Shown here piece by piece: positions 1,813-43,680 of a DNA stretch of 64,000 bases. The notes under the pieces were generated by a model, which was not told the origin of the DNA, did no database searches, and worked only from the letters and a program-made list of their open reading frames with translations. Position numbers and translations under genes: made by a program. Position 1 is the first letter of the stretch. The number at the start of each line of letters is the position of its first letter. The DNA comes from an uncultured cyanobacterium (lineage in GTDB: Bacteria; Cyanobacteriota; Cyanobacteriia; Cyanobacteriales; CAWUOF01), in contig CAVUSO010000001.1 of the NCBI GenBank assembly GCA_963744145.1, positions 5,088,001 to 5,152,000 of the forward strand, read 5' to 3'.

Positions 1813-3302
1813 CTACGGTGTACACACAAGTTGAGATAGAGTAAGGAGAGAAGGGAAGTAAGGAGAAAAAAGTAGTGGAAAATCCAATTTTAATTCATGT
1901 GCAACAATGTGAGAGAACAGCATTCGGAGATCCAAGACTGGGAAAAAGAGGGGCTTCATTGTATGCAGCAATGGCACAACATCAATCAGTAAATATTCGG
2001 AAAATCAGTAAAAATCGAGCCGAGCAAGTTGGATATTACCGATTTTTAGGGAATGAGAATGTAAAAACTGGAGAATTAGTCGTAAGTTTAGGAGAGCATT
2101 GCGCCTTACAGGTAGATGGAAAACACCACGTCTTAGCGATAAGTGATAGTAGTGAAATTAACTTAGAGTCTCACAAAGGGAGATTGAAATCCGAGGGAAT
2201 TGGAGTAGTAGGAAACAATCAAGATATCGGATTTTATATTCATCCCACACTGGTATTAGATGCAGAAAATGGATTCCCACTTGGATTAAGTACAGTGCAA
2301 TTGTGGACAAGAGAACCTGACCATCAGGATCAGCATGAAAGAAAATATAAAAACTTACCGATTGAAGAAAAAGAATCCTATAAATGGCTCAAGTCAGCCG
2401 CTCAAACCCGCACCTGTTTCAGCTGGTCTAATATGAAAATGGTGACTCATATAGGCGATCGGGAAAGCGATATATTTGAAGAATTTGTCAGAGTACCTAA
2501 TCAACAGCATCATCTCTTAATTAGAGTCGGACAGAACCGTCGGCTCAAAGAGCAGTCTGAGTCTCTGTATACCTATTTAAGTCAGCAACATTGTGAAGGA
2601 ACTTATGCCATTGAAGTCCAGGCTGACTCACGGGTTGGACGAACAGCGAGAGAAGCATTCATGTTAGTACGTTGTGCCCTCGTTCAAATTCAGCGTCCTG
2701 AGCATTTATCTGCCGCAGATTATCCAGAAAGTGTCAATCTTTACGCAGTGGAAGCTGTAGAAGTCAATCCACCAAAAGGTCAACAACCGATTCACTGGCG
2801 ATTACTCACTACACATAGAGTAGTTTGTATTGAACAAGCATTACAAGTAATTGAATGGTACAAATGGCGCTGGCGGATTGAACAACTGTTTGCTACCCTC
2901 AAATCCGTTGGCTTAGATCTCGAAGCAACTCAATTAGAGTCAATTAAATCTATTCAAAAATTGTGTGTTTTAGCTTTATCGGTAGCTGTCAGAATTTTGC
3001 AGTTAATTGTCGGGCGTGACCAGCCTGAATTACCTGCAACCTACGCATTCAATGATGAACAACAGCAATGTTTATCCCAGATTGCTCCCACTGTTTCCGG
3101 ACCAACTTTAGCACAACAAAATCCTTATCCACCTCATTCTTTACCTTGGGCAACTTGGATTATTGCTCGACTGGGTGGTTGGTCTGGCTATCGGTCTCAA
3201 AAACCGCCAGGAATTACTACTTTAGTGCGCGGACTAAGCCAATTTCAATCCTTTTTTGATGGCTGGAAACTCGCTCTAGGTATGGTTGTGTGTACACCGT
3301 AG
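1813..3302 (+). mobile_element. IS4-family (IS50/Tn5-like) insertion sequence
   Basis: 17-bp terminal IRs CTACGGTGTACACACAA (1813-1829) and TTGTGTGTACACCGTAG (3286-3302); direct repeat CCCTAGGAGGG at 1802-1812 and 3303-3313. Confidence 0.92.
1875..3302 (+). CDS. IS4-family (Tn5-like) DDE transposase
   Basis: FGDPRL N-terminus, EKESYKW, GDRESDI, YKWRWRIEQLFATLK (YREK motif), IARLGGW. Confidence 0.95.
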   Translation: MENPILIHVQQCERTAFGDPRLGKRGASLYAAMAQHQSVNIRKISKNRAEQVGYYRFLGNENVKTGELVVSLGEHCALQVDGKHHVLAISDSSEINLESHKGRLKSEGIGVVGNNQDIGFYIHPTLVLDAENGFPLGLSTVQLWTREPDHQDQHERKYKNLPIEEKESYKWLKSAAQTRTCFSWSNMKMVTHIGDRESDIFEEFVRVPNQQHHLLIRVGQNRRLKEQSESLYTYLSQQHCEGTYAIEVQADSRVGRTAREAFMLVRCALVQIQRPEHLSAADYPESVNLYAVEAVEVNPPKGQQPIHWRLLTTHRVVCIEQALQVIEWYKWRWRIEQLFATLKSVGLDLEATQLESIKSIQKLCVLALSVAVRILQLIVGRDQPELPATYAFNDEQQQCLSQIAPTVSGPTLAQQNPYPPHSLPWATWIIARLGGWSGYRSQKPPGITTLVRGLSQFQSFFDGWKLALGMVVCTP

Positions 3303-3356
3303 CCCTAGGAGGGAAGGGGGAGAAATAGCTCACTAATTTTACTTGGGTTTCTGCTG

Positions 3357-3495
3357 ATAATTCTGACTCCCCTTTCCTCTTAGGAGAGGGGTTGGGGGAG
3401 AGGTCTATTGCTGCGATCGCTCCCATTTCTCCTCATAATTCTGACTCCCCTTTCCTCTTAGGAGAGGGGTTGGGGGAGAGGTCTATTGCTGCGAT
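3357..3495. repeat. Two direct copies of a ~61-bp REP-like G/C-rich element
   Basis: ATAATTCTGACTCCCCTTTCCTCTTAGGAGAGGGGTTGGGGGAGAGGTCTATTGCTGCGAT at 3357-3417 and 3435-3495. Confidence 0.85.
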
Positions 3496-3610: not shown

Positions 3611-4606
3611 ATGTCAAAAAAATTTCCCACCAATAGCGATCGAGATGTTTTATCAACATCCCTGGTTGAAGAGTTTCTGAGTTTAGCCAATTTTCAGCGA
3701 GCCTGGGAAAAGGTAGCTTTCAATAAAGGTAGTGCTGGGATTGATGAAGAAACGATCGATAAATTTAAGCAGAATTTAAAAGCAAATCTTTCTCAATTGA
3801 GAGAATCTGTTGCTAATAGTACCTATCAAGCACTTCCCTGTAAACAAGTTTTAATCCCTAAAAATCAAGACAGTTGGCGAGAATTAAGAATTCCGGCTGT
3901 TAGAGATAGAATTGTTCAGCAAGCTTTATTAAATGTTCTTGCTCCAGTCTGGGAAAATAAGTTTTCTAAGTCTAGTTTTGCTTATCGTCCAGATTTATCT
4001 TACTTAGATGCTGTTGAAGAAGTCGCTCGCTGTCGAGATTTAGGTTATGTATGGGTACTGGATGCAGACATCACTCAATATTTTAATAATATTGACCACC
4101 AAAGGTTATTGAGAGAAGTTAGAAAGCACATCGATAATCCAGGGATTCTCTGTCTGATTAAATCTTGGATTTCTACTGAAATCGCCACAGAACAGGGAGT
4201 GATTAGAAATGAAAAAGGAATTCCTCAAGGTGCTGTGATTTCGCCTTTATTAGCTAATATTTACTTGGATGAGTTTGACCATTTTTTCTCTGATTCTGAG
4301 TTGCAGTTAATCCGTTATGCTGATGATTTTTTGGTATTAGCTTACTCCCGAGAGCAAATTGTTCAAGCTTATTCAGAAGTAAACCGATTACTCAAATCAA
4401 TGGGATTAGAGCTACATTCTGAGAAAACTCAGATTACCAGTTTTGAGCGGGGATTTCGATTTTTAGGTCATGGTTTTTTAGAAAATGCTATTTTTCCTTT
4501 GGAGTCTGCTAAAACTCAGCAGAAGTTAGTATCAGGAGAAAGTAATGGTAAAAAAAAAGTCTCCTGCTCGAAACAGAAAAGGAAACGGAAGCGGCATCTG
4601 CGTTAA
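3611..4606 (+). CDS. CRISPR-associated reverse transcriptase (N-terminal part of a split RT-Cas1)
   Basis: Group II intron-like RT motifs KGSAGID, IPAVRDRIVQQA, GIPQGAVISPLLANIYLD, RYADD and FLG; no maturase or HNH tail; lies directly upstream of cas1-cas2. Confidence 0.93.
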   Translation: MSKKFPTNSDRDVLSTSLVEEFLSLANFQRAWEKVAFNKGSAGIDEETIDKFKQNLKANLSQLRESVANSTYQALPCKQVLIPKNQDSWRELRIPAVRDRIVQQALLNVLAPVWENKFSKSSFAYRPDLSYLDAVEEVARCRDLGYVWVLDADITQYFNNIDHQRLLREVRKHIDNPGILCLIKSWISTEIATEQGVIRNEKGIPQGAVISPLLANIYLDEFDHFFSDSELQLIRYADDFLVLAYSREQIVQAYSEVNRLLKSMGLELHSEKTQITSFERGFRFLGHGFLENAIFPLESAKTQQKLVSGESNGKKKVSCSKQKRKRKRHLR

Positions 4607-4638: not shown

Positions 4639-5697
4639 GTGGTTAAATCTGAGGGTTTTGAGGATGCTTCTAAAAATATTTGGAACAAGAACATGGCTAC
4701 TATTTATTTAATTGAACAAGGAACGGCGGTTTATAAAGAAAATTTGCGGTTTGTGATTTGGGTTTCTGATGAAGAAAGAAAAGAAATTCCCATTCGAGAA
4801 GTGGAAAGAATTCTGGTGTTTGGTAATATCCAAGTTTCAACTCAAGCGATAAATGCTTGTCTGGAAGAGAAAATCATCATTCTATTTTTAAACCGGTCCG
4901 GGCACTATAAAGGTCATCTTTGGAATTGGGAACATACCCATTTAGCTAATGAATTATTGCAAATTCAAAAATGGCAAAATATGCCGTTTCAATTACAAGT
5001 TTCTCAAGCAATTGTTCGCGGAAAGTTACTGAACTCGAAGCAATTATTGTTAAGGTTAAACCGGAAACGGAAAGTAGCAGAAGTTGCCCGGGCGATCGCG
5101 GGTATTAGTTCTGATATTAACACTCTGACGACAGTTGATAATCTTGATAGTTTACGGGGTTATGAAGGTATTGGTGCCGCCCGATATTTTCCAGCATTTG
5201 GTAAATTAATTACTAATTCTGGGTTTAAATTTTCTCTACGAAACCGTCAACCTCCCACCGATCCTGTTAATTCTTTATTAAGTTTTGGCTACACCCTTTT
5301 ATTTAATAATGTTTTGAGTTTAATCGTAGCTGAGGGTCTGTCTCCTTATTTTGGTAATTTCCACTATGGAGAAGATAAAAAACCCTATCTGGCTTTTGAC
5401 CTGATGGAAGAGTTTCGATCGCCGATTGTTGATGGTCTGGTGATCAAATTAATCAATAGCTCGGTTTTCAAGCCTACTGACTTTGAATTTGTTGCTAGCA
5501 CACAAGGAGTTTATTTAAGACATTCTGCTAGACGAGGGTTTCTCGAACAGTTTGAAAAACGTATGAATGAAGAAGTTTCTCATCCTGATTTACAATCGCA
5601 AGTTTCTTATCGAGAGGCTATTCAATTGCAGGTTCGACGCTACAAACGTAGTCTGTTACATGGGCTTGACTATGAACCTTTTTTGAGAACGATATAA
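4639..5697 (+). CDS. cas1: CRISPR-associated integrase Cas1 (conserved domain starts at ATG 4693; frame open from 4552)
   Basis: GYEGIGAARYF, DPVNSLLSFGY, GNFH and LAFDLMEEFR motifs. Confidence 0.96.
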   Translation: MVKSEGFEDASKNIWNKNMATIYLIEQGTAVYKENLRFVIWVSDEERKEIPIREVERILVFGNIQVSTQAINACLEEKIIILFLNRSGHYKGHLWNWEHTHLANELLQIQKWQNMPFQLQVSQAIVRGKLLNSKQLLLRLNRKRKVAEVARAIAGISSDINTLTTVDNLDSLRGYEGIGAARYFPAFGKLITNSGFKFSLRNRQPPTDPVNSLLSFGYTLLFNNVLSLIVAEGLSPYFGNFHYGEDKKPYLAFDLMEEFRSPIVDGLVIKLINSSVFKPTDFEFVASTQGVYLRHSARRGFLEQFEKRMNEEVSHPDLQSQVSYREAIQLQVRRYKRSLLHGLDYEPFLRTI

Positions 5698-5713: not shown

Positions 5714-5986
5714 ATGGTGGTTGTAGTGTACGACATTCCCGATGATAAAAGACGCACCAAGTTGTCTAATTTTCTAGAGGGCTATGGGACAAGAGTTCAG
5801 TGGTCTGTGTTTGAGTGTTTTATCACCTTAGACGAGATGCGAGTGTTACATGAGAAGGTGAAAAAACTTGTCAAGTCAGCGGAAGATGATGTTCGTTTCT
5901 ACTGGCTCTCTCCTGAAGCTGGGTCAATGGTTTTAACTATTGGTAGCGAAAAGCCTCAACCTCCCCCAAAGTATTATGTAATCTAG
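5714..5986 (+). CDS. cas2: CRISPR-associated Cas2
   Basis: VVYDIPDDKRR, YGTRVQWSVFEC; directly follows cas1. Confidence 0.96.
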   Translation: MVVVVYDIPDDKRRTKLSNFLEGYGTRVQWSVFECFITLDEMRVLHEKVKKLVKSAEDDVRFYWLSPEAGSMVLTIGSEKPQPPPKYYVI

Positions 5987-6280
5987 ATTTTCACTGTAGT
6001 GCTAGTGTGTGGATGACACATGTACACACTAGCGAGGATTGCTGCGGACACTTAAGTCCCAGCAATCCAGAAATTCCTGTAATAGACCTCTTGCAAAAGT
6101 GCGATCGCACCTCAAAAACATCTAAACTGCACAATTGTTCACCCAAATTGAAACTGTGTAGCTTCGACGCGTGTAAACGCTATAATCACTACATAGTAAA
6201 GACTAAACGCGAAAATATTAATCTCAGTAAAAATTACCTTTACCAGTTTCTCTAGAAAATTAGATGTTTTGATATCGAAA

Positions 6281-6442
6281 ATGGGACAAATAGCCATAAG
6301 AGTTGCTGGTTGCTTAATAGTTGCTATTGGGCGATCGCCTATTCTGATATTTGGCCACTTACAACGGGACTTTAAGATTTTTCTGGGGCTGGCGATCGCC
6401 AGCACCGGGATTAGTTCTTTTTGGGACAAACCTATGGGATAA
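6281..6442 (+). CDS. Putative 53-aa small membrane protein (not in ORF track)
   Basis: MGQIAIRVAGCLIVAIGRSPILIFGHLQRDFKIFLGLAIASTGISSFWDKPMG, two hydrophobic stretches, co-oriented with cas2. Confidence 0.4.
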   Translation: MGQIAIRVAGCLIVAIGRSPILIFGHLQRDFKIFLGLAIASTGISSFWDKPMG

Positions 6443-6921
6443 TTAGAAGGTGGACACTAAGTTTTTCCATATCCTGACTCAAAGTTTTCTTAGTGGTTTT
6501 GGTGTGTAGATACGAGAACTTGTTGATCCATATTTTGCTGTCTACTATCTCAAAGTCTTGCTATATAAAGGTTTTCAAAGATTATGGGAGTTTTGCTATA
6601 CTTACCGACACACCTCTGAGCTTGCTTGGCTGCTTTGGTGTGTCGGTACGAGAATTTGTTAATGTCTGTTTTACATTCTACTAGGTCAAAGTCTTGCAGC
6701 ATAAAGCTTTTAAAGAATTACGGGAGTTTTGCTATGCTTGCCGACACACCTCCGCTGATGCTGAAAACGCCTATTTTCTCGTTGAAGTGTGTCGATGCCT
6801 TGTCAGATATAGGTTTCAGACTGCTTATTTTTGATGCTATATTCATCCTGGCTTGTGCTAAAATGAGGTGTGTCGATTTGACGGCTGAAACTCTCTCTGG
6901 GTATAGGCTGCCAGACGAACT
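6443..6921 (+). promoter_or_regulatory. CRISPR leader with internal ~120-bp tandem duplication
   Basis: Non-coding stretch between cas2 and the first repeat; repeated GTGTGTCG and inverted CGACACAC motifs; candidate extended -10 TGcTAAAAT at ~6856-6864. Confidence 0.75.
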
Positions 6922-9900
6922 CCCTACCGATGGGCTTAAATCGGACTAGTTGGAAACCATTCGGACTTCCCAGGACCTAGGTGCCTTGCAATCCATCCCT
7001 ACCGATGGGCTTAAATCGGACTAGTTGGAAACCCTGTGTCGTGACAATCCATACAGTGACCATTCTCCGTGCCCTACCGATGGGCTTAAATCGGACTAGT
7101 TGGAAACGAGAAATTGCTGCACAAATAATTCCCTAGGGAACCCTACCGATGGGCTTAAATCGGACTAGTTGGAAACTTTCCTAAGAAACGTCCGTCGATG
7201 TCAGTTTTTGACTTTCCCTACCGATGGGCTTAAATCGGACTAGTTGGAAACGACCAAATTGGATAAACCTCTCCAATTTGGTAGTACCCTACCGATGGGC
7301 TTAAATCGGACTAGTTGGAAACGCGCATTAAACACTGCCTTTTGGCAGTTTCCGTTTATGGTGCCCTACCGATGGGCTTAAATCGGACTAGTTGGAAACA
7401 ATGTCATATCGTTCCTGGATGGGCATGGGATTTTTGAGCTGCCCTACCGATGGGCTTAAATCGGACTAGTTGGAAACGTTGCCTTTTGGCAGTTCGAATT
7501 GACGGTGACGCCACCGGCCCTACCGATGGGCTTAAATCGGACTAGTTGGAAACAAAGCGACGCCAACACCAACACAAGAAGCAACATTTTTGACCCTACC
7601 GATGGGCTTAAATCGGACTAGTTGGAAACACAACGACAGGATGTCGCCCGGAAGGGCAGCTAACTTGCCCCTACCGATGGGCTTAAATCGGACTAGTTGG
7701 AAACCTGGCGTCAACGCTGTGCGCGCCTTGTTGTTGGTCGCCCTACCGATGGGCTTAAATCGGACTAGTTGGAAACCTAACTCGTCATACAGACCAGCAG
7801 CCCGGAAGGTTGCTAGCCCTACCGATGGGCTTAAATCGGACTAGTTGGAAACGGAATTATTCCGCTTGTCGTAGTTAAAAATTACACCACCCTACCGATG
7901 GGCTTAAATCGGACTAGTTGGAAACGCCCAGAACCAAAGAAAACATTAACAAAGCGGAAACCCTACCGATGGGCTTAAATCGGACTAGTTGGAAACCCGT
8001 GAACATCGGGGCAGACGTAGGTGTCCCCCCCTTTACCCTACCGATGGGCTTAAATCGGACTAGTTGGAAACACAAGCGGGGCGCCCCTGTGAGTCCTTAG
8101 GGCACTCTTCCCCTACCGATGGGCTTAAATCGGACTAGTTGGAAACTTTTTTGATTGAGCGGATAACACCCTGGCGGGTGCTTCCCTACCGATGGGCTTA
8201 AATCGGACTAGTTGGAAACTTTTTTGGGCAGGACCGGTTTACCGTCTGGCCCCAACCCACCCTACCGATGGGCTTAAATCGGACTAGTTGGAAACCGACC
8301 TCCCTTTCGGTCAACCACCACGGGGCCCTACCGATGGGCTTAAATCGGACTAGTTGGAAACTGCTGGTCTTGGGAACAACCGTAGACGGTGTTCCCCCTA
8401 CCGATGGGCTTAAATCGGACTAGTTGGAAACCTGTAGTCTTGAACATAAGCTGGGTGTTGTGCGACCCTACCGATGGGCTTAAATCGGACTAGTTGGAAA
8501 CTTGCAATCGTCGAGGACCTGCTGCTGTCTGACCCTACCGATGGGCTTAAATCGGACTAGTTGGAAACCCCCAAAACCTCGATAGAGGAGGTAAGGTAGG
8601 GTAGTTTTAACCCCCTACCGATGGGCTTAAATCGGACTAGTTGGAAACCGACCGTCACGCTCCTCAATGATTATGGAGCCCTCCCTACCGATGGGCTTAA
8701 ATCGGACTAGTTGGAAACCAGTCGAGGCTGTGGGGTGCGTTCTTTGCAGCCGTCGAGGCCCTACCGATGGGCTTAAATCGGACTAGTTGGAAACGTCCAA
8801 GTGCCCCCGAGGATATCGCATTGTGCTTTAGTTGCCCTACCGATGGGCTTAAATCGGACTAGTTGGAAACCTTTCGCTTAAGTTGGTGTAGGTAGGGGAA
8901 AACCCTACCGATGGGCTTAAATCGGACTAGTTGGAAACTATATACGATGAGGTGAGGACCATCTCCGCTATTGACCCTACCGATGGGCTTAAATCGGACT
9001 AGTTGGAAACTTTCCGTCAGACGAGCATTCCGTTTCCGCTACCTTCCCTACCGATGGGCTTAAATCGGACTAGTTGGAAACCTGTCGGCAGCGTTGAAAT
9101 TGAAGTATCCAACACACCCCTACCGATGGGCTTAAATCGGACTAGTTGGAAACGTATTGTTGCTAAGGAGCAACTTATAACGTACCCCGCCCTACCGATG
9201 GGCTTAAATCGGACTAGTTGGAAACTCTTCTGGTCAACCACAACAGGGTGTTGCCCTGTTGGACAACCCTACCGATGGGCTTAAATCGGACTAGTTGGAA
9301 ACTATATTAGCTACAAAAAGACTTGCAGCCGAAAAAGCAGAACCCTACCGATGGGCTTAAATCGGACTAGTTGGAAACGACATCGTGTGCGCCCGACTGT
9401 TGGTCGGGGTTACACCCCTACCGATGGGCTTAAATCGGACTAGTTGGAAACACCGTTATGGTGGTGTGGATGTGCTGGTCTGGCAACTGGCCCTACCGAT
9501 GGGCTTAAATCGGACTAGTTGGAAACTGGCAGGTTGGCCCGCCATCGATGCTGTGTACCGCCCTACCGATGGGCTTAAATCGGACTAGTTGGAAACGACA
9601 TCGAACCTTATGATGCCCAGCGGGGCGATGGCAGCCCTACCGATGGGCTTAAATCGGACTAGTTGGAAACTTACAGGCTAGATCAAGTGTCGCGGGTGCT
9701 TAGGACCCTACCGATGGGCTTAAATCGGACTAGTTGGAAACTTTTTAGCAGACATATTTTTTCGTCCTTAGATAAAAGCCCTACCGATGGGCTTAAATCG
9801 GACTAGTTGGAAACGCTCGGTGCACCATGCTTCTGTCACATCTTGGGCCGTGCCCTACCGATGGGCTTAAATCGGACTAGTTGGAAACTTTTACGTATCT

Positions 9901-11362
9901 CTCACTCATCATTGAGTGATATACGCCCTACCGATGGGCTTAAATCGGACTAGTTGGAAACGACTGACTGTTGGAAGTCAGGTACTGTCCCGCCCCTACC
10001 GATGGGCTTAAATCGGACTAGTTGGAAACTTTTTACAGGTTCCCAAGGCTTCCCCGTTGGAGTCCTTCCCTACCGATGGGCTTAAATCGGACTAGTTGGA
10101 AACAGTACAGAAGCAACAGCAACACCGATACCAACAATAACACCACCCTACCGATGGGCTTAAATCGGACTAGTTGGAAACTTTATCGAGACGCCACCGG
10201 TGGCGTCTATATCGTGCGACCCCTACCGATGGGCTTAAATCGGACTAGTTGGAAACTTTATCGGGGGTGGGATGGCAAACGATCACTTTGCCCCTACCGA
10301 TGGGCTTAAATCGGACTAGTTGGAAACGCGAGGTTGCAGTCAGTATCGTACCACTGCACTCCACCCCTACCGATGGGCTTAAATCGGACTAGTTGGAAAC
10401 GTCTGACAGCTCTTGCCGTCAGCGGAACACTCGGTTTCCGCCCTACCGATGGGCTTAAATCGGACTAGTTGGAAACTTTTCTCCTATCCCCGTTAGCCTA
10501 GATCATTAGCTTTACTTCCCTACCGATGGGCTTAAATCGGACTAGTTGGAAACTCTGTCTTTCCGTTAGCGGTCCAGGTACCGCCTACCCTACCGATGGG
10601 CTTAAATCGGACTAGTTGGAAACAGGTTATTGTTGCTACGAAGTTTAAGGAATTGAAAGATCCCTACCGATGGGCTTAAATCGGACTAGTTGGAAACCAA
10701 ACAAAGTCGCAGAAGAATCGAATACAAAGCCCTACCGATGGGCTTAAATCGGACTAGTTGGAAACCCTTGACTACAGCGGCAGCAGCAGCAACACCAAGC
10801 AAAGCCCTACCGATGGGCTTAAATCGGACTAGTTGGAAACGCAATAGCAGCAAGGGCTAGAAGGGCTAGTAGAGCAACACCCTACCGATGGGCTTAAATC
10901 GGACTAGTTGGAAACTTGAAAGCGCCGCTTCAGCTCTGGTGAGCTGTTTGGCCCTACCGATGGGCTTAAATCGGACTAGTTGGAAACGCTGTAAAAGGAC
11001 TCCACGGCCAGCGTTGTTATCCCTACCGATGGGCTTAAATCGGACTAGTTGGAAACCTACGGCAACAGCAACAACAAACAATTTGATAGAAGACCCCTAC
11101 CGATGGGCTTAAATCGGACTAGTTGGAAACTAGAGCATCCCGCTCTTCAATTAGGAGCGTTCCTTTCTTCCCCACGCCCTACCGATGGGCTTAAATCGGA
11201 CTAGTTGGAAACAAGGGACGGTTGGACCAAATGCTGGGAAATCTACCAACCCTACCGATGGGCTTAAATCGGACTAGTTGGAAACGTGTACAGTTCAGCC
11301 TTAATCGCTGCTATTGCAGCTTTAGGCCCTACCGATGGGCTTAAATCGGACTAGTTGGAAAC
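6922..11362 (+). CRISPR. CRISPR array, 61 identical 36-bp repeats and 60 spacers (30-46 bp)
   Basis: Repeat CCCTACCGATGGGCTTAAATCGGACTAGTTGGAAAC with CCGAT/ATCGG stem and GAAAC end; counted manually; orientation from leader position and 3' GAAAC. Confidence 0.98.
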
Positions 11363-11599: not shown

Positions 11600-12934
11600 T
11601 TATCTATCAAAAAGCTGAAGCGTTAAATTGACTAAAAGTTTAGCCAAAGCTTTTACTATTGGGCGATTAGAAACATCTTCTCCGCGTTCCAAATGATGAA
11701 CTTTACCTGTCAAGATCGGATCTTTACTGGTAATTTCGTCATTTTTACCGTTGTAATCACTATAAATAATTGCAATGACTTCTACAGGTTGAGCAAGATT
11801 TTTTTCACAAAGTTCTTTCCATGCAGCTACATCAGCTTCAGTTTTTGCTAAAATAACTGCATGAGTAGCTTGAGACATAATGTCTTTATCCTCATAGATG
11901 GGAATTTTACCACCCACATCAAACAGTAACAGAGAGTTTTTAATTACCTTAAGCTCTCGGGTTTTTGCTTTAGCGAATTCGGGGGTAAATTTTGCCTTAT
12001 ACTCATCTTTTAGTTTTCGAGCTAAATCAGGATAATTAGCAACTGTTTCTGAGTACCAAGATCCATCACCATCGGGACAGCCAGAGACGGTATAAAAATC
12101 ATCAGGAGCATTGTCTAAATTTAAAATTGCTGTCTTTAATCCGTCTCTCAGTACAGTTTTTCCCGTATTTGGCGGTCCACATAAGACGACTTTAACTGTA
12201 GGTTGTGGATCATAATTAATATCAAAAGTTTCGCCAACTTGATAGTCTTTACCATGACTCGTCACTACCACATATCGATCTGATCCTTTATCTCCCTGTT
12301 TAGGATCAAAAACTGCTACACTGCTATACAGATGCGCCACTTTATTAGCGATCGCAAAACTAGCTAAGACTGTTGAACGTCCATTAATTCTAAGCACTTG
12401 TTTACCCCCAGAGAGTTGTCCTGAACTTATTAATTGATCTAATTGTGCTTCTGCATCTAGGAGGATTTGGTCACCATCAACTTTAATCCCATTGTTAATT
12501 TTGGCAATTAGAACATCCTCTTCCCAATAGATTAAAAATGAGGGATGATCGCTAGGATGAGAAGAAACTTGTTTAACTTCACCAGTAATCATGTCAATGC
12601 GACTACCGACAGGATACTCAGAAGCGGTACTTATGACCACAATGTATGCACCTAAGCGGGTATCGGAAACAGCGATCGCACGATACAAATGAGCCAACTC
12701 ATGGGTCAAGGTATAACCACCTAGCACCGAAATTCTGCCATTAATTTTCAGTAAGTTTCCACCTTTAATTTCCTCAGCAGCAATCATGTCCCGCAGTTGC
12801 GTTGCTAGATCCCGCACAATTTGGTCCCCATCAGCGGGAATTGGTTCTCCCTTTGCATTTTTAGCAAAATCTACTTTTAAGGTATCCCCTTCTAACCGAA
12901 TTTGATAGCTAGTCTTGGTTATTCCGGTATTCAT
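11600..12934 (-). CDS. csx3: Tandem Csx3 (Crn3 ring nuclease) domains fused to a P-loop NTPase
   Basis: Two repeats of L(K/R)INGR...AHLY..(I/V)AV.D...Y(I/V)VV; C-terminal GPPNTGKT, CPDGDGSW and DVGGK; likely start ATG 12934. Confidence 0.8.
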   Translation of the reverse strand: MNTGITKTSYQIRLEGDTLKVDFAKNAKGEPIPADGDQIVRDLATQLRDMIAAEEIKGGNLLKINGRISVLGGYTLTHELAHLYRAIAVSDTRLGAYIVVISTASEYPVGSRIDMITGEVKQVSSHPSDHPSFLIYWEEDVLIAKINNGIKVDGDQILLDAEAQLDQLISSGQLSGGKQVLRINGRSTVLASFAIANKVAHLYSSVAVFDPKQGDKGSDRYVVVTSHGKDYQVGETFDINYDPQPTVKVVLCGPPNTGKTVLRDGLKTAILNLDNAPDDFYTVSGCPDGDGSWYSETVANYPDLARKLKDEYKAKFTPEFAKAKTRELKVIKNSLLLFDVGGKIPIYEDKDIMSQATHAVILAKTEADVAAWKELCEKNLAQPVEVIAIIYSDYNGKNDEITSKDPILTGKVHHLERGEDVSNRPIVKALAKLLVNLTLQLFDR

Positions 12935-13040
12935 AGCTCTGATGTCCTGTGCATAAGTGATGAGGTTTATTCTCTCATCCCTATGGAAAGGGAGGTTTCC
13001 AAAGCCTGTTAATTTGGAAAAGGAACTGAGCGGGATTAAC

Positions 13041-14507
13041 ATGATGTTTGGTAAAACCTTTGATTTGTGCCCCAGTGTAGACCTGTTACAAGTGCTAGCA
13101 AGAGGTTCTTTGAGACAAAATTTGCCAAAAGCAGTGCGGTTATGGGTCCTATTGCGATCGCTGTACGGGGATGAAGCTGATCCCATGCGGTTGGATCTGG
13201 GTGAAAATTTTACTTACAGTGAGTGGAACAAACTATTTTTTAATCTAACCAATCATGAACATAAAAATTACAAAATTCCGACTGATCACGATCCCCAGTG
13301 TCATTGTGCTAAAACAATTAGTGATTGGTTATTCGATTCTAATATGGGTTGTGATCCTACAACATGGCAACATTCATTCTTACAACTTTATTCTATGTCT
13401 CAACCCGAATTAGATAGCTTGCTGTTATCGGGAATTATCAATAAAGACGGAGAAAATTCCAACAAGCAAACACCTCTACCAGGTGGTCGTTTATTTGCGA
13501 TCACGAGTAAAAATATTCAATATGATTTTGGAGCATTGGTGGAAATGGGATGGCTAAAAATTCAGAAAATAACAAGTTGTAATAGTAAAAGATGTAAAAC
13601 TCTCTATTGTCGCGTAGAAGATTTTCCGAATCTTGGTATTTATCCCAATCCTCCTATTGCTCAATCGGAAATTAAAGTCAGTAATGTTATTCAAAATGAC
13701 CTGGCTGATTTTTTTAATGATTTCGGAGGTGAAATTAATGGTAAACAGCGCTTCTTTTTAGATATTGAGTATATTGTTCCTGCAAATTTTTCCCAGCAAA
13801 TTAACACCATCAGACAACAACTGAAAGAAGTTTGGCAGCAATCAATAGTACCACCGATAAAAATAACATATATCAGTGCTAGAAATTATCAAAGCTATCA
13901 AGATGAAGGAGAAGAATATATTGTTTATCCAGTTTGCATCTATTATTCCCATCGCGCACCTTATTTATTTAGCTTTGGTCAAGATCCTGTAAATAAAGGT
14001 AAAATTGGCTGGTATGATTATCGATTAGACCGAATACAGAAATTAGAACAACTAACCTGGGATCAAGTTAAAATTGCCGATTTCTCTGAACAGATTTGTC
14101 AGGGAAAAACACCAAGTCATATTGAAGACTTAAGAAATGAAGCGTGGGGATTTGATTTTTACAAACCAAAAAAGTTAATGCTGTTGCGATTCGATCGCTA
14201 TTTTCATAATCGCTATATTGAGGGAACTGAACGGGAAAAAAGATTTCAGAAAATTCCTTACAGATATGCTAAAAGTCTGGTGGAACAAGAACCAATTGAC
14301 AGTGAACTTAAACAGCAAACTTTAGCGATTTTCAAGTCTCGTTCGACCACAGATATTTATTGTCGAGTTAATTATCGTGTAGATGATAATAATGTGATTA
14401 TGAGATTGAGAGCGTGGGGTGCTATGGTAGAAGTATTTTTACCTTGGGAATTGCGATCGCTGATGGCTAAAGAAATTGAAGATAATTACCATCTTTATCA
14501 TAATTGA
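13041..14507 (+). CDS. CRISPR-associated WYL-domain protein (sll7078/TIGR03985-like)
   Basis: LARGSLRQNLPKAVRLWVLLRSLYG N-terminus, VYPVCIYY..RAPYL, WYDYRLDRI, RLRAWGAMVEVFLPWELR. Confidence 0.85.
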   Translation: MMFGKTFDLCPSVDLLQVLARGSLRQNLPKAVRLWVLLRSLYGDEADPMRLDLGENFTYSEWNKLFFNLTNHEHKNYKIPTDHDPQCHCAKTISDWLFDSNMGCDPTTWQHSFLQLYSMSQPELDSLLLSGIINKDGENSNKQTPLPGGRLFAITSKNIQYDFGALVEMGWLKIQKITSCNSKRCKTLYCRVEDFPNLGIYPNPPIAQSEIKVSNVIQNDLADFFNDFGGEINGKQRFFLDIEYIVPANFSQQINTIRQQLKEVWQQSIVPPIKITYISARNYQSYQDEGEEYIVYPVCIYYSHRAPYLFSFGQDPVNKGKIGWYDYRLDRIQKLEQLTWDQVKIADFSEQICQGKTPSHIEDLRNEAWGFDFYKPKKLMLLRFDRYFHNRYIEGTEREKRFQKIPYRYAKSLVEQEPIDSELKQQTLAIFKSRSTTDIYCRVNYRVDDNNVIMRLRAWGAMVEVFLPWELRSLMAKEIEDNYHLYHN

Positions 14508-16499: not shown

Positions 16500-18272
16500 G
16501 TGAGTCAAATATATACTGCGATCACCTTTGCCCCAGTGCAAAGTTTTATTGAAAAATCCCGTAAATTGCGAGATTTATATGGGAGTTCATTTATCTTATC
16601 CTACTTAGCCGTGGAAATTTGTAGAGCAGCTAGGCGCGATCGCAATGTTCCAGAAGATAATCCCCCTCCGGAAATTGACCCGATCATCTCACCAGCACTC
16701 ATCAACGTCACTCAAGGGACGCCTAATCAAATAATTATTCGAGGAGATTACAAAAAAGATAACGCTGAAACCGCCTTTGCTGAAGCTTGGGATGCAGTGA
16801 TAGAAGGTTGTCGTCAGTGGATCGAAGACAATGTTAAAACTTGTGGGCAGTATTACTGGAGGAGGAACTGGGATGGGTGGAAACATCATGCTTGGGAGTT
16901 TTTTTGGGGACAAGGACAAAATATCGGTGAAGCAAGGAATGCGGTTAATGAAGCCAAGCGATCGCGCAATTGGATAGCAATAAACTGGGTAGGAGAAAGT
17001 TCGACTTTATCTGGTGCCGATGGGGTCGCGTGGCCAGGTTTAGGCAAGAATAATCCGAAGTATTCTAATTACCAGCAGCAAAAATTGGAGATTGAAGGTT
17101 TTTATCAGCGACTAAGTTTGAAACTGGGAGAAGCTTTTGCAGAAGCCGCAAATCTCAATGTAGATGAAGAAAAGAAAAAAGAATATGGTGCGGCGTTTGT
17201 TGACCCTGATGAAGAATTAAGCATACCTGAATTAGTGAAGCGGTTAATTACGCATCTAGCGATCGCTGAGAGAATTGTCGCGCGATTGAAACAACCAATT
17301 ACTAAAAGAGAACTTAAAGAAAGGTTGAAGCAACTGAGTGAAGAACTAAATCCCGATAGTTTTAGAGATTTAAGTCGCTTAAAACACAAAAATAAAAAAG
17401 CCCAGACATCAGTCCCAGAATATTATACTGGTTGGTTTCAGGGAGACGGCGATCGCATGGGCGATTTAATGAAAAGACTCTCTAACGAGGACAATCCTGA
17501 AATTGAAGCCCAAGAACTTCATAAATTTAGTCGGGCGATGATGAAATGGGGAGAAAAAAACTTCAAGCCCAACCTGAATGCTTCTAACGGTCGTACAGTT
17601 TATGCTGGTGGTGATGACTTTCTTGGGATTTTTTACCCCTTACCAAAAAATCCGTCACAAAAGCAGCAATTTATCCCTCTGACCGGACAAGATTGCATCA
17701 ATTGGTTTTATGAATTTCCCGCTCTTTGGAAACAGCACAAACAACCCGTAAGTGTTAGTGTTGGATTTGTCTGGGCAGCACCCAATGTACCACAAAGAGA
17801 CGTTTTACAGCACTGCCATTCAGCTGAATCTTCAGCAAAAAAGAGTGGCAAAGACCGTATTGCATTGCGGGTGCTATTTAACGGTGGTACTCATATAGAA
17901 TGGGTATGTCCTTGGTGGTTTTTAGAAGTATTAAAACACTATCAAGATAGAGATGGCAACACTTTAAAATCTTTGTCAAAAGGGAATAAAACTAAACCAA
18001 ACTGGACTCACCTTTATAACGATGTTGCTACTTTAGAATCGCGCCACGCATTTTACGGTAATACTAAAATTGCCCAAGCACTCTTTCAAATTTATTTTCC
18101 TGAGTGCAAGGATTTTATTCACCATGATTATTGGTGGGTACATTGCTATAGAGATGAATTGAGAACGGGCATTTTAGGACATGAACAAAAAAATGCCAAA
18201 AAAGATGTTACTGAACTGTTTAACGAATGGGTTATTAACTTAGCAAAAGTAGGATTTCACTTATGCACATAA
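16500..18272 (+). CDS. cmr2: Type III-B Cas10/Cmr2 lacking HD domain, with intact GGDD palm
   Basis: ITFAPVQSFIEKSRKLRDLYGSS, WFQGDGDRMG, VYAGGDDFLG. Confidence 0.95.
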   Translation: MSQIYTAITFAPVQSFIEKSRKLRDLYGSSFILSYLAVEICRAARRDRNVPEDNPPPEIDPIISPALINVTQGTPNQIIIRGDYKKDNAETAFAEAWDAVIEGCRQWIEDNVKTCGQYYWRRNWDGWKHHAWEFFWGQGQNIGEARNAVNEAKRSRNWIAINWVGESSTLSGADGVAWPGLGKNNPKYSNYQQQKLEIEGFYQRLSLKLGEAFAEAANLNVDEEKKKEYGAAFVDPDEELSIPELVKRLITHLAIAERIVARLKQPITKRELKERLKQLSEELNPDSFRDLSRLKHKNKKAQTSVPEYYTGWFQGDGDRMGDLMKRLSNEDNPEIEAQELHKFSRAMMKWGEKNFKPNLNASNGRTVYAGGDDFLGIFYPLPKNPSQKQQFIPLTGQDCINWFYEFPALWKQHKQPVSVSVGFVWAAPNVPQRDVLQHCHSAESSAKKSGKDRIALRVLFNGGTHIEWVCPWWFLEVLKHYQDRDGNTLKSLSKGNKTKPNWTHLYNDVATLESRHAFYGNTKIAQALFQIYFPECKDFIHHDYWWVHCYRDELRTGILGHEQKNAKKDVTELFNEWVINLAKVGFHLCT

Positions 18273-19546
18273 CATCAACATCTATCGCAGAGGAAAAAAA
18301 ATCAGAAAATCCGCCATTTTCCCACATAATTGTGATTAAACCGTTAGGATTTCTCTATGGCAGTGCTGGAAAGTTTTTATCACCAGAAAACTTAGTCGGA
18401 CGTTCTGGAACTAGCTTTCCTCCTAGTGCTGCCACTTTATCAGGTATTTTTGCGGCTTCCTTACCGCCCGATAAAATCAAAAATTTGCAGTTGGCTGGGC
18501 CTTTTTGGGCATGGAGTCACAATCCGCAAAATTTTTATGTTCCTACTCCTTTTAATTGCTTAGTCAAGGATAAAAAAATTCATCAGCAAATCGCGTGGTT
18601 CCAACAATGTAAAGATCCATGTAAAGGACGATGGTTAGCACAATTTAGGGTGTGGCAAAAGATCAATGGAGAGTTAGTAGGGTTAGATTTATATAAAACA
18701 CCACCTAATGATAAGTTTGAAAGCAAAACTTGGTTACCAATCAGACATTGGAAACGAATAAGACATAAAATAAATAAAGATAAAAACTTATTCAAGGAAA
18801 CCATACCCCAAGAAGAAAATTGCTTTCCTCAACTTAAAGTTGAATCACCCCCTTGGGAATTTGTCCCTCACCTGCACCCGCGACTACAAGAGGATCAAAG
18901 ACGAGTTATAAAGCCTGAAGAAGAACGAGAAAGGGGCAGTTTATTTTTAGAAAACGGAGTGCAATTAAATCCCGATGCGTGCTTAGTTTATTTGTCAAAT
19001 ATTTCTATTCCCGATGGTTGGTATCGGTTTGGTGGTGAAGGTCATTTAGTAGATTTGCGTTGTGAGAATATATGCCAAACTGTTACTGATTTACTCAAAG
19101 AAAAGTTAGGGCACAGTTTTGCATTAATCACTCCAGCAGTATGGGGTTCTAATCGGCTGTCTTACCGCGAACCAATGGTACAGGAAAATCAGGATAAAAA
19201 TGGTGAGTGGGTTCCTGCTTGGAAACGGGAAGCTTTACTGACAGAACGTAGTATCCCTTTCCGTTATCGCTTAGGAAATCCTCAACAATCGGCAGAAGGT
19301 GAGAAACGAAAAAGTAATGAAAAATTGCTGTCTCGCGGACGGTATGCGATGCCAGCAGGCAGTGTTTATGTGTTAGAAAAACCTCTCCCATCTTGGCAAG
19401 AATGGGATAAAGATTGGTTTCCCAAAGAAGGTGTTTCATTTAAACGTTGGGGTTGTGGGCTATCGTTACCTTTGGAAAGCGCACTTGTTCAAGAGTCAGA
19501 TCCACAAACAGCTAATACTTCTGAAATTTCCCTAGGAGATAATTAA
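18263..19546 (+). CDS. cmr3: Type III-B Cmr3 (Cas5 group)
   Basis: LYGSAG..LSPENLVGRSG, WYRFGGEGH, LITPAVWGS, RYAMPAGSVYV, WGCG; position after cmr2. Confidence 0.9.
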   Translation: MHITSTSIAEEKKSENPPFSHIIVIKPLGFLYGSAGKFLSPENLVGRSGTSFPPSAATLSGIFAASLPPDKIKNLQLAGPFWAWSHNPQNFYVPTPFNCLVKDKKIHQQIAWFQQCKDPCKGRWLAQFRVWQKINGELVGLDLYKTPPNDKFESKTWLPIRHWKRIRHKINKDKNLFKETIPQEENCFPQLKVESPPWEFVPHLHPRLQEDQRRVIKPEEERERGSLFLENGVQLNPDACLVYLSNISIPDGWYRFGGEGHLVDLRCENICQTVTDLLKEKLGHSFALITPAVWGSNRLSYREPMVQENQDKNGEWVPAWKREALLTERSIPFRYRLGNPQQSAEGEKRKSNEKLLSRGRYAMPAGSVYVLEKPLPSWQEWDKDWFPKEGVSFKRWGCGLSLPLESALVQESDPQTANTSEISLGDN

Positions 19547-20431
19547 ATGTATCACAAAGCTTATGGAATTATTGAAACCTTAGCCCCTTTACATATTGGA
19601 GCGACAGCAGGAGAAGAAACAGGAAATTTAAACTTGATTTTCCGCGATCAGTTTACCAAAACTGGGATTATTCCCGGTAGTTCAATTCGAGGAAGATTTC
19701 GCGCTGATATGCGATCACAAAATGGGAAAGTTTCTGAATGGTACGGTCACGAAGCGGTTGCAGGACAACAAGATGGCGGCACTACGGAAGCATCAGTTAA
19801 ATTTGAATATGCGTCTTTAGTATGGTTACCTGTTTTTTGTCCAGGTCAACCGATCGTTTGGGTAAGTTGTCCTTCACTGCTAAAACGTTACCAGCAAATC
19901 ACTCAAATTGATCGCAAGATCGATATTCCCAAACCTTACACGGCTGATCATGGATTAGAAGCGCGGTTAGTACCAGGAACAACTGAAAAAGTTTTATTCT
20001 TTAACTTGGGTTTTTTAGGGATTGAACATCAGGAAAATTTAGCCGTTTGGATTCCGATCGGTGCTGACTTACCTAAAAAACAATTAGTTGTTGTTGATGA
20101 TAACGATATCTCTATGCTGCATGATATGGCTTTGTATCGTCAAAGTCGTATTAAGATGCTGGATAATATGAAGAAAGTAGATACAAGAACGGGTGCTTTT
20201 TTTAATGTAGAAGCCTTGCCCGTTGGTAGTATTTTAGTGTTTCCAATAGCATCAAAACAATTCGGCTGGCAACCCTTTGGCAACCTGCAAAAAGATAAAA
20301 ATTATTCTCAAGAACTGTATTTTGGGGGATTAGAATCAATTGGATTTGGTCGGTGTAATGTAACCCTGGTAGGAGAAGCACTTGATCAGCCAGAAAATAT
20401 TCAAGCAACTACACAGGAGGTTAATAGCTAA
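19547..20431 (+). CDS. cmr4: Type III-B Cmr4 (Cas7 group RAMP)
   Basis: PLHIGA, IIPGSSIRGRFR, FGGLESIGFG glycine-rich loop. Confidence 0.95.
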   Translation: MYHKAYGIIETLAPLHIGATAGEETGNLNLIFRDQFTKTGIIPGSSIRGRFRADMRSQNGKVSEWYGHEAVAGQQDGGTTEASVKFEYASLVWLPVFCPGQPIVWVSCPSLLKRYQQITQIDRKIDIPKPYTADHGLEARLVPGTTEKVLFFNLGFLGIEHQENLAVWIPIGADLPKKQLVVVDDNDISMLHDMALYRQSRIKMLDNMKKVDTRTGAFFNVEALPVGSILVFPIASKQFGWQPFGNLQKDKNYSQELYFGGLESIGFGRCNVTLVGEALDQPENIQATTQEVNS

Positions 20432-20955
20432 TGGCTTGGAAATATTACAATTTCGAGGAAAATGGTCAGCAGTTACACAGTTTAGATCAAGTAGCGCAAA
20501 ATCTGGTTTTGGCGGCTAAGGAACGATTGGTGAAGGATGACAGGGGACGGATTGTTTTAGATGACAATGGACAAGGTAAACATTCGCTCAATCAATCCTT
20601 TAAAATGCGGGAAGCAGTTGCTTACGGGTTAGAGCGTTTTTGGGGAGAGCATTTGCGTTTTCAAGGTAAATCGAAGTTTAATTGCGATGAATTTGATAAT
20701 AAATCTAAGTATTGGAAGGATACTTGGGATGCTTTAGTGATAATTATGCGGCAAGGTGGTGTCATTATTCCCAATGATTCAGTTCATATTGACAGACCGA
20801 ATTCTGTGAAGTCAATGGCACAGAAATTATGGGCTTTGGATATTAAAGACCAGCGAATTATCTTGGCTGTTTTGACACAGTTATGCGATTCCATTGTCTG
20901 GTGGACACAGCGGTATAAAGGACCTGGGGATTTAACAATTGATGAAGATAATTAG
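20431..20955 (+). CDS. cmr5: Small subunit Cmr5 (Cas11)
   Basis: KMREAVAYGLERFWGE and LTQLCDSIVWWTQRYK; operon position. Confidence 0.8.
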   Translation: MAWKYYNFEENGQQLHSLDQVAQNLVLAAKERLVKDDRGRIVLDDNGQGKHSLNQSFKMREAVAYGLERFWGEHLRFQGKSKFNCDEFDNKSKYWKDTWDALVIIMRQGGVIIPNDSVHIDRPNSVKSMAQKLWALDIKDQRIILAVLTQLCDSIVWWTQRYKGPGDLTIDEDN

Positions 20956-20966
20956 GAGATTAAATC

Positions 20967-42294: not shown

Positions 42295-43680
42295 TTAATC
42301 TAGGGTAGGCATTGATAACACTGGCTCATTTTCCCGATCGATTCCCTTCTCAAAGCCAGCAGCTGCAGCACGAGCGCGACCAGCGTGCCACAAGTGACCA
42401 ACTAAGAAGAAGAAACCCATGACAAAGTGGAAAGAAGCCAACCAAGCACGGGGGGACACATAGTTGAATGAGTTAACATCAGTAATGACACCACCAACTG
42501 AGTTGAGAGAACCCAGAGGAGCATGAGTCATGTACTCAGCAGCCCGGCGAGCTTGCCAAGGTTGAATATCATTCTTAATTTTGTTTAGATCCAGACCATT
42601 AGGACCACGTAAAGGCTCCAACCAAGGACCACGGAAATCCCAGAAGCGCATAGTTTCACCACCGAAGATAATTTCTCCAGTCGGAGAGCGCATCAGATAT
42701 TTACCAAGACCGGTCGGACCTTGAGCAGAAGCGACGTTAGCACCTAAACGTTGGTCACGGATCAAAAAGGTGAGAGCTTGAGATTGAGAAGCTTCCGCAC
42801 CAGTAGGACCGTAAAATTCGCTGGGATAAACCGTATTGTTAAACCAGACAAAGCAAGAAGCGATCAAGCCCATCAAAGACAGAGCGCCTAGACTGTAGGA
42901 TAGATAGGCTTCTCCAGACCAGATGAAAGCACGACGTGCCCAACCAAAAGGCTTAGTCAGGATATGCCAAATTCCACCAGCAATGCAGATAATCCCAATC
43001 CAAATGTGACCACCGATCACATCTTCCAGGTTATTGACACTAACAATCCAGCCTTCACCACCAAAGGGAGATTTGACTAAATAGCCGAAAATAACCAAAG
43101 GATTAAGGGTGGGATTATTAATAATCCGTACATCACCACCACCAGGAGCCCAAGTGTCGTAGATCCCGCCAAAAAACATGGCTTTAAGTACCAACAACAA
43201 AGCTCCACAACCAAGGACGATCAGGTGAAACCCGATGATCGTGGTCATTTTGTTTTTATCTTTCCAGTCATAACCAAAGAAAGAAGAATATTCTTCTAAG
43301 GTTTCTGGACCACGCACAGCGTGATAAATACCACCTAAACCTAAAACTGCTGAGGAAATCAGGTGTAAAACACCAACGACGAAGTAAGGGAAAATATCAA
43401 TTACTTCACCCCCAGGTCCAACACCCCAACCCTGAGTAGCCAGGTGAGGTAATAAAATTAAACCCTGTTCATACATGGGTTTTTCTGGGACAAAATGAGC
43501 GACTTCAAATAAAGTCATCGCTCCAGCCCAAAAGACGATGAGACCAGCATGGGCAACGTGAGCGCCCAACAGTTTACCAGATAGGTTAATCAGGCGAGCG
43601 TTACCAGACCACCAGGCGAAACCAGATGATTCGAGGTCGCGATTACCTGACATGATCGAATTACTAGAGAGCGTTACCAC
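42295..43680 (-). CDS. psbC: Photosystem II CP43
   Basis: [20 protein letters not shown]; conserved GTG start at 43680 overlapping psbD. Confidence 0.98.

Follow-up and report, generated by a model that had tools for sequence, protein, structure and literature searches.

The closest described relatives of the system reported here are CRISPR systems whose adaptation modules include a reverse transcriptase (RT). Spacers of Roseiflexus RS-1 match small partiti-like RNA phages (10.1101/2022.02.15.480533; review PMC12014289), and in Marinomonas mediterranea the acquisition of RNA spacers by RT-Cas1/Cas2 is accompanied by 3'-deoxyadenosine (dA) tailing, the tail being required for ligation and the noncoded A residues being retained in vivo where spacer meets repeat (Mohr et al. 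2024, PMC11014452). The RT-linked spacers of the cyanobacterium Arthrospira platensis have been called 'hyperdiverse, enigmatic' (Silas et al. 2017, PMC5513706). All of these sources are used here in excerpt; that of the review describes spacer matches to RNA phages as rare and names no cyanobacterial case, the word 'cyanobacteria' being absent from it (PMC12014289). The present analysis concerns a CRISPR array in a 64,000-nucleotide (nt) stretch of the genome of an uncultured cyanobacterium (GenBank assembly GCA_963744145.1, contig CAVUSO010000001.1, positions 5,088,001 to 5,152,000; hereafter the window), placed between an RT-cas1-cas2 module and a type III-B cmr2-6 operon. An earlier sequence-only reading had proposed that many of its spacers are homologous at the protein level but diverged at silent sites, and that much of the array targets one small, diverse family of elements.

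The CRISPR system itself is of a known kind. Roseiflexus RS-1 also has a III-B system with an RT in its adaptation module and spacers focused on small diverse elements, and acquisition from RNA is inferred in both cases, but RT and Cas1 are fused there, whereas they are separate in the window, where the host is a cyanobacterium; its partiti-like targets were recognized by near-exact matches in metatranscriptomes, whereas the window offers relatedness only among the spacers themselves, at the protein level (10.1101/2022.02.15.480533; PMC12014289). A. platensis likewise carries a cyanobacterial RT-linked III-B array with an unidentified spacer source, but the extreme spacer diversity reported for it came from nucleotide-level searches, whereas the window array is markedly redundant at the protein level; the excerpted text contains neither 'synonymous' nor 'translated', and its mentions of 'amino acid' and 'coding' are unrelated to spacer content (PMC5513706). 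In M. mediterranea, A-rich runs of 1-6 nt stand at one spacer-repeat junction on the RNA-sense strand, as they do here, but that system has a Cas6-RT-Cas1 fusion and the runs were seen in native-host acquisition and in biochemical assays (PMC11014452), whereas those of the window, which may be untemplated, occur in a natural genomic array and are all leader-proximal. The same gene order is found on plasmid pNPM1 of Nostoc sp. N6 and plasmid pP742401 of Gloeothece citriformis PCC 7424, where the RTs adjoining cas1, cas2 and an array are 66% identical to that of the window and the repeats agree at 30-32 of 36 nt, but the 33 and 4 spacers of these arrays (loci L007 and L012) contain no within-array homology group and no match to the groups described below.

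What is new here is the pattern of spacer content, together with the A-run scars in a natural array; a literature search returned no report of spacers within one array that are related only at the protein level. It appears probable, though well short of certain, that between 13 and about 20 of the 60 spacers stem from the same few short foreign protein-coding stretches. The array indicates that RT-linked cyanobacterial spacers can derive from protein-coding sequence, lie in the sense orientation and come from a very small, diverged pool, and it offers one of the few clues to the targets of such arrays, which are poorly understood.

Protein-level homology among the spacers

Each of the 1770 spacer pairs was scored by its best ungapped BLOSUM62 segment over the 3 x 3 frames of the same (reverse-complement) strand. 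Eleven pairs scored at least 31, eight at least 36 and five at least 41, with a top score of 50. The corresponding means were 0.33, 0 and 0 (top score 34) in 18 mononucleotide-shuffled arrays, and 0.39, 0.06 and 0 (top score 36) in 18 sets of 60 non-overlapping fragments of host coding sequences. As a control with real spacers, 17,395 pairs involving 98 spacers of six related plasmid arrays gave three pairs of at least 31 and one of at least 36.

Seven of the eleven pairs are non-repetitive: sp10/32 (47), sp6/8 (43), sp29/48 (41), sp11/34 (38), sp24/58 (36), sp8/18 (32) and sp19/32 (31). These firm links join 12 spacers (6, 8, 10, 11, 18, 19, 24, 29, 32, 34, 48 and 58), and sp45 is added as a thirteenth by an 11-nt exact match and conservative changes. 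The remaining four are pairs of low complexity that join sp9, 44, 53 and 57 through poly-Cys readings, and the top pair overall, sp53/57 (CCCCCR), is a GCA/ACA-type repeat in an implausible frame. With the four or five low-complexity hydrophobic spacers (9, 44, 53, 57 and perhaps 54) and two borderline ones (26 and 50), the earlier count of about 18 of 60 spacers in homology groups was fair. The array and the spacers concerned are as follows (codon-position mismatches are given in the order first, second, third).

6922-11362, plus strand: CRISPR array of 61 identical 36-nt repeats and 60 spacers (30-46 nt)
9011-9045, minus strand: sp29 (KVAETECSSDG), pairs with sp48; 22 of 28 nt identical, codon-position mismatches 1, 0, 5
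10401-10440, minus strand: sp48 (ETECSADGKSCQ), partner of sp29, score 41
8649-8682, minus strand: sp24 (GSIIIEERDG), pairs with sp58; 21 of 34 nt identical, 8 of 13 mismatches in one phase
11131-11176, minus strand: sp58 (VGKKGTLLIEERDAL), partner of sp24, score 36
8296-8325, minus strand: sp19 (PVVVDRKGG), tiles with sp32 and sp10; 18 of 23 nt identical to sp32; alignment A1
9226-9266, minus strand: sp32 (CPTGQHPVVVDQK), score 47 against sp10 and 31 against sp19
7630-7668, minus strand: sp10 (QVSCPSGRHPVV), same group, beyond the span of the sequence-only reading; 21 of 30 nt identical to sp32, mismatches 1, 1, 7
8795-8834, minus strand: sp26 (TKAQCDILGGTW), borderline link to sp50, score 28; 12 of 16 nt identical, all 4 mismatches in one phase
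10554-10587, minus strand: sp50 (GGTWTANGKT), borderline partner of sp26
7323-7363, minus strand: sp6 (TINGNCQKAVFNA), grouped with sp8, sp18 and sp45; score 43 against sp8; alignment A2
7478-7517, minus strand: sp8 (GGVTVNSNCQKA), score 43 against sp6 and 32 against sp18; 11-nt exact match with sp45
8220-8259, minus strand: sp18 (GWGQTVNRSCPK), a third, more diverged variant; score 32 against sp8 and 26 against sp6
10182-10220, minus strand: sp45 (SHDIDATGGVSI), tiles onto sp8; contains a 20-nt perfect palindrome
7705-7740, minus strand: sp11 (DQQQGAHSVDA), pairs with sp34, score 38
9379-9415, minus strand: sp34 (CNPDQQSGAHDV), partner of sp11
8072-8110, minus strand: sp16 (EECPKDSQGRPAC); proposed link to sp43 (10030-10067) unsupported, score 21
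8502-8532, minus strand: sp22; proposed link to sp25 (8719-8758) unsupported, score 18 in the proposed frame

The span singled out by the sequence-only reading, 8072-11176, runs from the start of sp16 to the end of sp58, inside one array; its coordinates and spacer numbering were right, and each reverse-complement peptide that it quoted was reproduced exactly. Three of its pairs, sp29/48, sp24/58 and sp19/32, are real homologues that exceed every null, scores of at least 31 being expected for only about 0.35 pairs. The statement that nearly every shared codon of sp29/48 differs silently was slightly overstated, since among their eight shared codons seven specify the same residue, five with a silent difference and two with identical codons. 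The sp26/50 pair is plausible but not established, being a GGTW overlap at a score of which, or above, about 1.4 chance pairs are expected per array. Two weaker pairs fell to chance level: the null yields 6-7 pairs of at least 25 per array, above the score of sp16/43, and the nucleotide local score of sp22/25 is 9, against a null of 6.2 such pairs per array. Pair scores, which the sequence-only reading had wished to see compared with a permutation null, thus exceed it for the strong pairs but not for these two.

At the nucleotide level most of the relationships are invisible, and only sp6/8, sp19/32, sp8/45 and sp29/48 stand out. In the overlapping parts identity is 62-79%, not the near-identity expected if they were hot-spot overlaps taken from one molecule. 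Related spacers end at different points and tile into longer stretches, sp10-sp32-sp19 giving 18 residues and sp45-sp8-sp6, with sp18, giving 23; one segment is stored in three mutually differing versions (sp6, sp8 and sp18). The tiled peptides sum to about 100 residues in six segments, which can serve as protein-level probes for metatranscriptomes and viromes.

The neighbouring spacers sp45 and sp46 open with the same 7 nt, TTTATCG (10182-10291). An enrichment of hairpins among the spacers was considered and dropped, 17 of 60 falling below the 5% shuffle tail as compared with 10 of 60 random host fragments.

Divergence, orientation and composition of the spacer source

The seven pairs share 56 complete codons, of which 44 specify identical residues, 23 of these by silently different codons. 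Mismatches at the three codon positions number 9, 6 and 32, so that the third position differs at 32 of 56 codons (57%), and in sp10/32 and sp29/48 TGC/TGT exchanges leave the Cys residues intact. In a phase test for which the frame was not chosen beforehand, the commonest phase contained 35 of 54 mismatches (null, 26.1±1.84), a count that none of 20,000 permutations attained; with a trio of Stigonema spacers (see below) included, the figures were 54 of 83 against 39.6±2.3. Judged from these codon-periodic, residue-preserving mismatches, the sources of the spacers are old, deeply diverged variants under purifying selection, which excludes RT errors, drift within the array and recent escape. 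Divergence among related pairs showed no trend with distance along the array: sp6/8, two spacers apart, are identical at 22 of 30 nt, and sp29/48, 19 apart, at 22 of 28, which suggests that several variants coexisted or alternated.

All related spacers lie in one orientation, for which the chance probability over the five firm groups is 0.004. Among 3540 ordered comparisons no homologous pair was found in opposite orientation, the two scores of at least 31 and none of at least 36 being the null level. In 11 of 12 pairs, and in 6 of 7 groups, the reverse-complement frame has a higher score than any forward frame, and the reverse complement of the array is accordingly the strand that we favour as coding, on the strength of frame comparison. 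In the homologous Nostoc N6 array the single degenerate repeat is the one farthest from cas2, and the array of the window is therefore, by analogy, probably transcribed from the cas2 side. Its repeat ends in ...TTGGAAAC, which we take to resemble the usual 8-nt handle of a CRISPR RNA (crRNA). With a leader on the cas2 side, as the distal Nostoc repeat indicates, the spacers would have the polarity of functional type III spacers: the crRNAs would run antisense to the strand favoured as coding, the orientation that a type III effector needs to recognize a transcript or a plus-strand RNA.

Ten of the 60 spacers (4, 17, 18, 29, 39, 41, 43, 45, 46 and 49; spacer region 6958-11326) open with TTT at the leader-proximal end, with runs of up to six, where about 1.5 are predicted from the interior rate (binomial p=2e-6). 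The same holds for 19 of 167 spacers in related arrays (L002, L004, L005, L007, L008 and L011; p=2e-4), and in neither the window nor these arrays was a comparable run found at the other spacer end, nor one of A. On the reverse-complement strand each run is a 3'-terminal A-run abutting the leader-proximal repeat, a geometry in keeping with the RNA-sense strand having been ligated as the bottom strand under the standard integration scheme, and one that resembles the 3'-dA tails of RT-Cas1 RNA acquisition. The origin of the run could be examined in three spacers, and in sp18 the 3' AAA of the reverse-complement strand aligns with GGC in both homologues, which suggests that it is untemplated. If the T-runs are indeed untemplated, they would be the first sign known to us of dA tailing in natural arrays and with a split RT and Cas1, a point on which no literature search was made.

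The base composition of the source is foreign to the host. Guanine plus cytosine (GC) makes up 39.7% of the host, 50.2% of all spacers and 56.6% of the 15 grouped spacers, and GC at third codon positions is 30% in host open reading frames (ORFs) and 57% in the grouped spacers. Although the frames were picked with a matrix that rewards Cys (BLOSUM62), the peptides of the grouped spacers differ from those of host ORFs in Cys (5.7% vs 0.9%), Gly (13.6% vs 7.0%), Val (10.2% vs 5.4%) and Leu (2.3% vs 11.6%). The earlier description of Cys/Gly/Pro/Thr-rich peptides held for Cys and Gly, but Pro is not enriched (4.0% vs 4.5%) and Thr only slightly so (7.4% vs 5.6%). In sp9, 44, 53, 54 and 57 the open reverse-complement frame reads as Gly/Ala/Val-rich and hydrophobic, and the forward frame as Thr/Ala/Pro-rich, which makes this group a weaker one. 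Taken together, the peptides encoded by the pool would appear to be rich in Cys and Gly and poor in Leu, to conserve their cysteines and, probably, to include hydrophobic segments rich in Gly, Ala and Val.

From eight detectable overlaps of at least 21 nt, the effective sampled length is estimated at about 7.5 kb (95% interval 3.8-17 kb) if all 60 spacers came from the pool, and at less if only some did. The frequency of overlap hence suggests an effective pool of at most about 4-17 kb. Such a small pool, the homologues diverged at silent sites, the single orientation and the foreign base composition agree with the earlier proposal that the array targets one small, diverse family, but no link was found between one homology group of the array and another, and the word 'one' goes further than the groups do.

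Explanations for the related spacers

Our preferred explanation, held with moderate confidence, is that RT, Cas1 and Cas2 have repeatedly sampled a small pool of diverged foreign coding RNAs, in a sense-specific and probably RNA-templated manner, in the service of the III-B effector. The module would capture fragments of a plentiful RNA of foreign origin, which could be an RNA replicon or, if a small DNA element is the source, its dominant mRNA; the fragments would receive a few dA residues, and the RNA-sense strand would be ligated into the bottom strand beside the leader-proximal repeat. Orientations that yield antisense guides would be the only ones retained, or the only ones made. A new variant would differ at over half of the silent sites, older crRNAs would presumably no longer pair with it, and the conserved segment would be stored again, so that each diverged variant needs a spacer of its own. 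The acquisitions would have taken place at different times, each from a different, anciently diverged variant, with one segment met in at least three variants.

A more specific suggestion, and a decidedly tentative one, is that the array documents encounters with small RNA replicons of filamentous cyanobacteria that form an undescribed family. These would be an RNA phage, or else a viroid-like or plasmid-like RNA that codes for protein and measures a few kb at most; they would encode a disulfide-rich secreted or structural protein, and at least three anciently diverged lineages of them would have been met. On that view a split RT and Cas1 would have acquired spacers from RNA templates, and the untemplated A-runs would be the scars left in a natural array.

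Several observations weigh against sampling of a small RNA pool, or at least restrain it. We know of no RNA-acquisition experiment for this clade. The nulls comprise only 18 plus 18 replicates. The forward frame that shares third positions often comes close (43 vs 47 for sp10/32), sp11/34 form the one group in which the forward frame scores higher (44 vs 38), and sp38 and sp49 have no open reverse-complement frame. The low-complexity group may consist of unrelated hydrophobic segments. In the control arrays there was no within-array overlap among 98 spacers, which places their pool above about 12 kb; the difference from the window array is genuine, though its power is limited. Where sp29 and sp45 have the terminal AAA their homologues have CAA, which is ambiguous, and the T-runs could reflect a preference for A-rich 3' ends instead of untemplated tails. 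No protospacer was found for the array in phage and plasmid records, the window or 12 related loci. Finally, in the excerpts of the published accounts RNA acquisition is demonstrated for RT-Cas1 fusion proteins only, and here the two genes are separate.

The searches behind this negative differ in what they can say. With blastn (word size 11) the whole array gave five matches in 50,697 phage records, all with E>=1, but with such silent divergence the absence of a nucleotide match carries little information; the pool must escape searches at the nucleotide level, since over half of the silent sites differ between variants stored in a single array. By blastn, six of 72,556 plasmid records were matched, all of them other CRISPR arrays found through the repeat, with no protospacer. 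The masked window and the 12 related loci contained no self-target, the longest exact match being 14 nt, and profiles of alignments A1 and A2 gave no match each in 177,635 PDB sequences at E<=10.

Comparison of related cyanobacterial arrays with this repeat, which the sequence-only reading had put forward as a way to assemble the target, yielded no shared group: a scan of a genome collection with the repeat gave six loci with 69 spacers in three metagenome-assembled genomes (MAGs), and none of 167 foreign spacers (these 69 and the 98 of the six plasmid arrays) matches the groups of the window array. The best cross-array matches are of low complexity or score at most 32, the exception being a score of 37 between a Stigonema and a Gloeothece spacer. 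Records of Stigonema, Caldora, Nostoc, Gloeothece, Fischerella and Synechocystis contain the repeat family. In three arrays of a Stigonema MAG, of the same repeat family, three spacers (L002 spacer 11 and L004 spacers 6 and 15) form a protein-level trio with scores of 45, 41 and 39 and encode variants of the peptide DRC-A/E-N-L/F-S/T-G-Q/Y-AFN; most differences among them fall at third codon positions, and one has a stop in the forward frame. The pattern of protein-related spacers is therefore not unique to the genome of the window. The Stigonema spacers have about 40-43% GC.

Related spacers might also come from a single element, as paralogues of a multi-copy gene or as internal repeats such as repeated Cys-containing modules, rather than from several diverged elements. 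Old internal repeats would likewise show deep silent divergence with conserved residues, and the lack of any divergence trend between near and distant pairs suits them equally; but all six segment groups would need to have been duplicated two- to threefold, and the tiles sp10-sp32-sp19 and sp45-sp8-sp6 are continuous and free of repeat junctions, so that we consider this origin rather unlikely. That the variants arose after acquisition, through error-prone reverse transcription, through spacer duplication and drift within the array, or by recent escape of a single phage, is brought to mind by the RT in the adaptation module. This origin was rejected on the evidence of the sequence and is scarcely conceivable: errors or drift would be neither codon-periodic nor residue-preserving, spacers with different end points are tiles and not copies, all 61 repeats are identical and so show no drift, and third-position divergence of 57% far exceeds what recent escape would produce. 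Chance or low-complexity similarity, an expected by-product of translating 60 short sequences in three frames, is the best reading of sp16/43 and sp22/25, is suggested for sp26/50 by an overlap of four residues, and is illustrated by the repeat pair sp53/57. As an account of the strong pairs it is refuted, with seven non-repetitive pairs of at least 31 against about 0.35 expected for all pairs, mismatch periodicity at P<1/20,000 and reading frames consistent within groups, and as a general explanation it is very improbable.

The sequence-only reading named the Cys-rich adsorption proteins of filamentous phages as candidate targets, and the idea can be widened to the adsorption and coat proteins of inovirus-like cyanobacterial phages. 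Inoviruses are small; a small genome would suit the pool size of at most about 4-17 kb, and an adsorption protein the Cys/Gly-rich peptides; the hydrophobic spacers sp9, 44, 53, 54 and 57 would resemble the membrane segment of a small coat protein. These features are generic, however, the search of the 50,697 phage records gave no nucleotide match, and a search listing for a large survey of inoviruses counts no occurrence of 'cyanobacteria' (Roux et al. 2019, PMC6813254). We regard filamentous phages, an idea that no result supports, as an improbable source.

The CRISPR locus and its surroundings

The genes around the array are the following.

3611-4606, plus strand: reverse transcriptase, 331 amino acids (aa), group-II-intron-like, without Cas1 fusion, YADD present (RYADDFLV)
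4639-5697, plus strand: Cas1 (Pfam Cas_Cas1 E=2.6e-87; TIGR00287 E=2.1e-85)
5714-5986, plus strand: Cas2, 90 aa (PADLOC Cas2 models up to E=5.6e-26)
5987-6921, plus strand: presumed leader, about 930 nt between cas2 and the first repeat, the leader side being judged from the position of cas2
11600-13186, minus strand: Csx3-AAA accessory protein of a ring-nuclease family (PADLOC Csx3-AAA E=1.6e-108; Pfam Cas_csx3)
12957-14507, plus strand: HTH-WYL / TIGR03985 CRISPR-associated protein (Pfam, NCBIfam and PADLOC matches)
16500-22712, plus strand: type III-B effector operon with cmr2/cas10, cmr3, cmr4, cmr5 and cmr6

RT, cas1 and cas2 are adjacent on the same strand and form an RT-associated adaptation module. 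The RT matches Pfam RVT_1 (E=1.7e-41), NCBIfam TIGR04416 (299.8 bits) and the PADLOC model of CRISPR-associated RTs (E=8.9e-105), and it matches the PADLOC Cas1_IIIb model (E=2e-62) over the N-terminal RT part (profile positions 4-307 of 617). A stop codon and a 32-nt gap divide the ORFs of RT and Cas1, which are not fused. The array has the regular, identical repeats and the nearby cmr2-cmr6 genes of a type III-B array, the latter recognized by PADLOC, Pfam and NCBIfam; the PADLOC values are E=5.8e-192 for Cas10b, E=2.6e-52 for Cmr5 and E=2e-191 for Cmr6, with Cmr3 and Cmr4 also matched. Cas10/Cmr2 (16500-18272) is short, at 590 aa, and keeps the GGDD motif (YAGGDDFLG); the Pfam Cmr2_N match begins at residue 6, and the protein appears to have no separate N-terminal HD nuclease region.

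The stem of the repeat covaries between loci, reading CCGAT...ATCGG in the window and in L007 and L009-L011, and CCTAT...ATAGG in two Gloeothece plasmids (L008 and L012), a compensatory change that supports a hairpin in the repeat transcript. The presumed leader holds a 136-nt tandem duplication (6498-6752; 1.9 copies, 81% identical). Immediately upstream of the RT, on the same strand, lie an IS4-family transposase and then a 78-nt tandem repeat of 1.9 copies (3348-3495), the whole spanning 1875-3495.

The CRISPR locus is flanked by a CHAT-domain gene beside a gene with a TPS/filamentous-haemagglutinin-N-terminal domain (23382-26108, minus strand), and this gene pair likewise stands beside the homologous RT-cas1-cas2 locus of Nostoc N6 plasmid pNPM1 (L007, 2088-7089). 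The CHAT gene of the window contains a 36-nt tandem repeat of 3.1 copies (24691-24800). Elsewhere in the window are a sucrose synthase gene and a full-length IsrR antisense RNA (43080-43266; 172 bits), the sole Rfam match of the window, which lies opposite an ORF at 42295-43758 that is presumably isiA.

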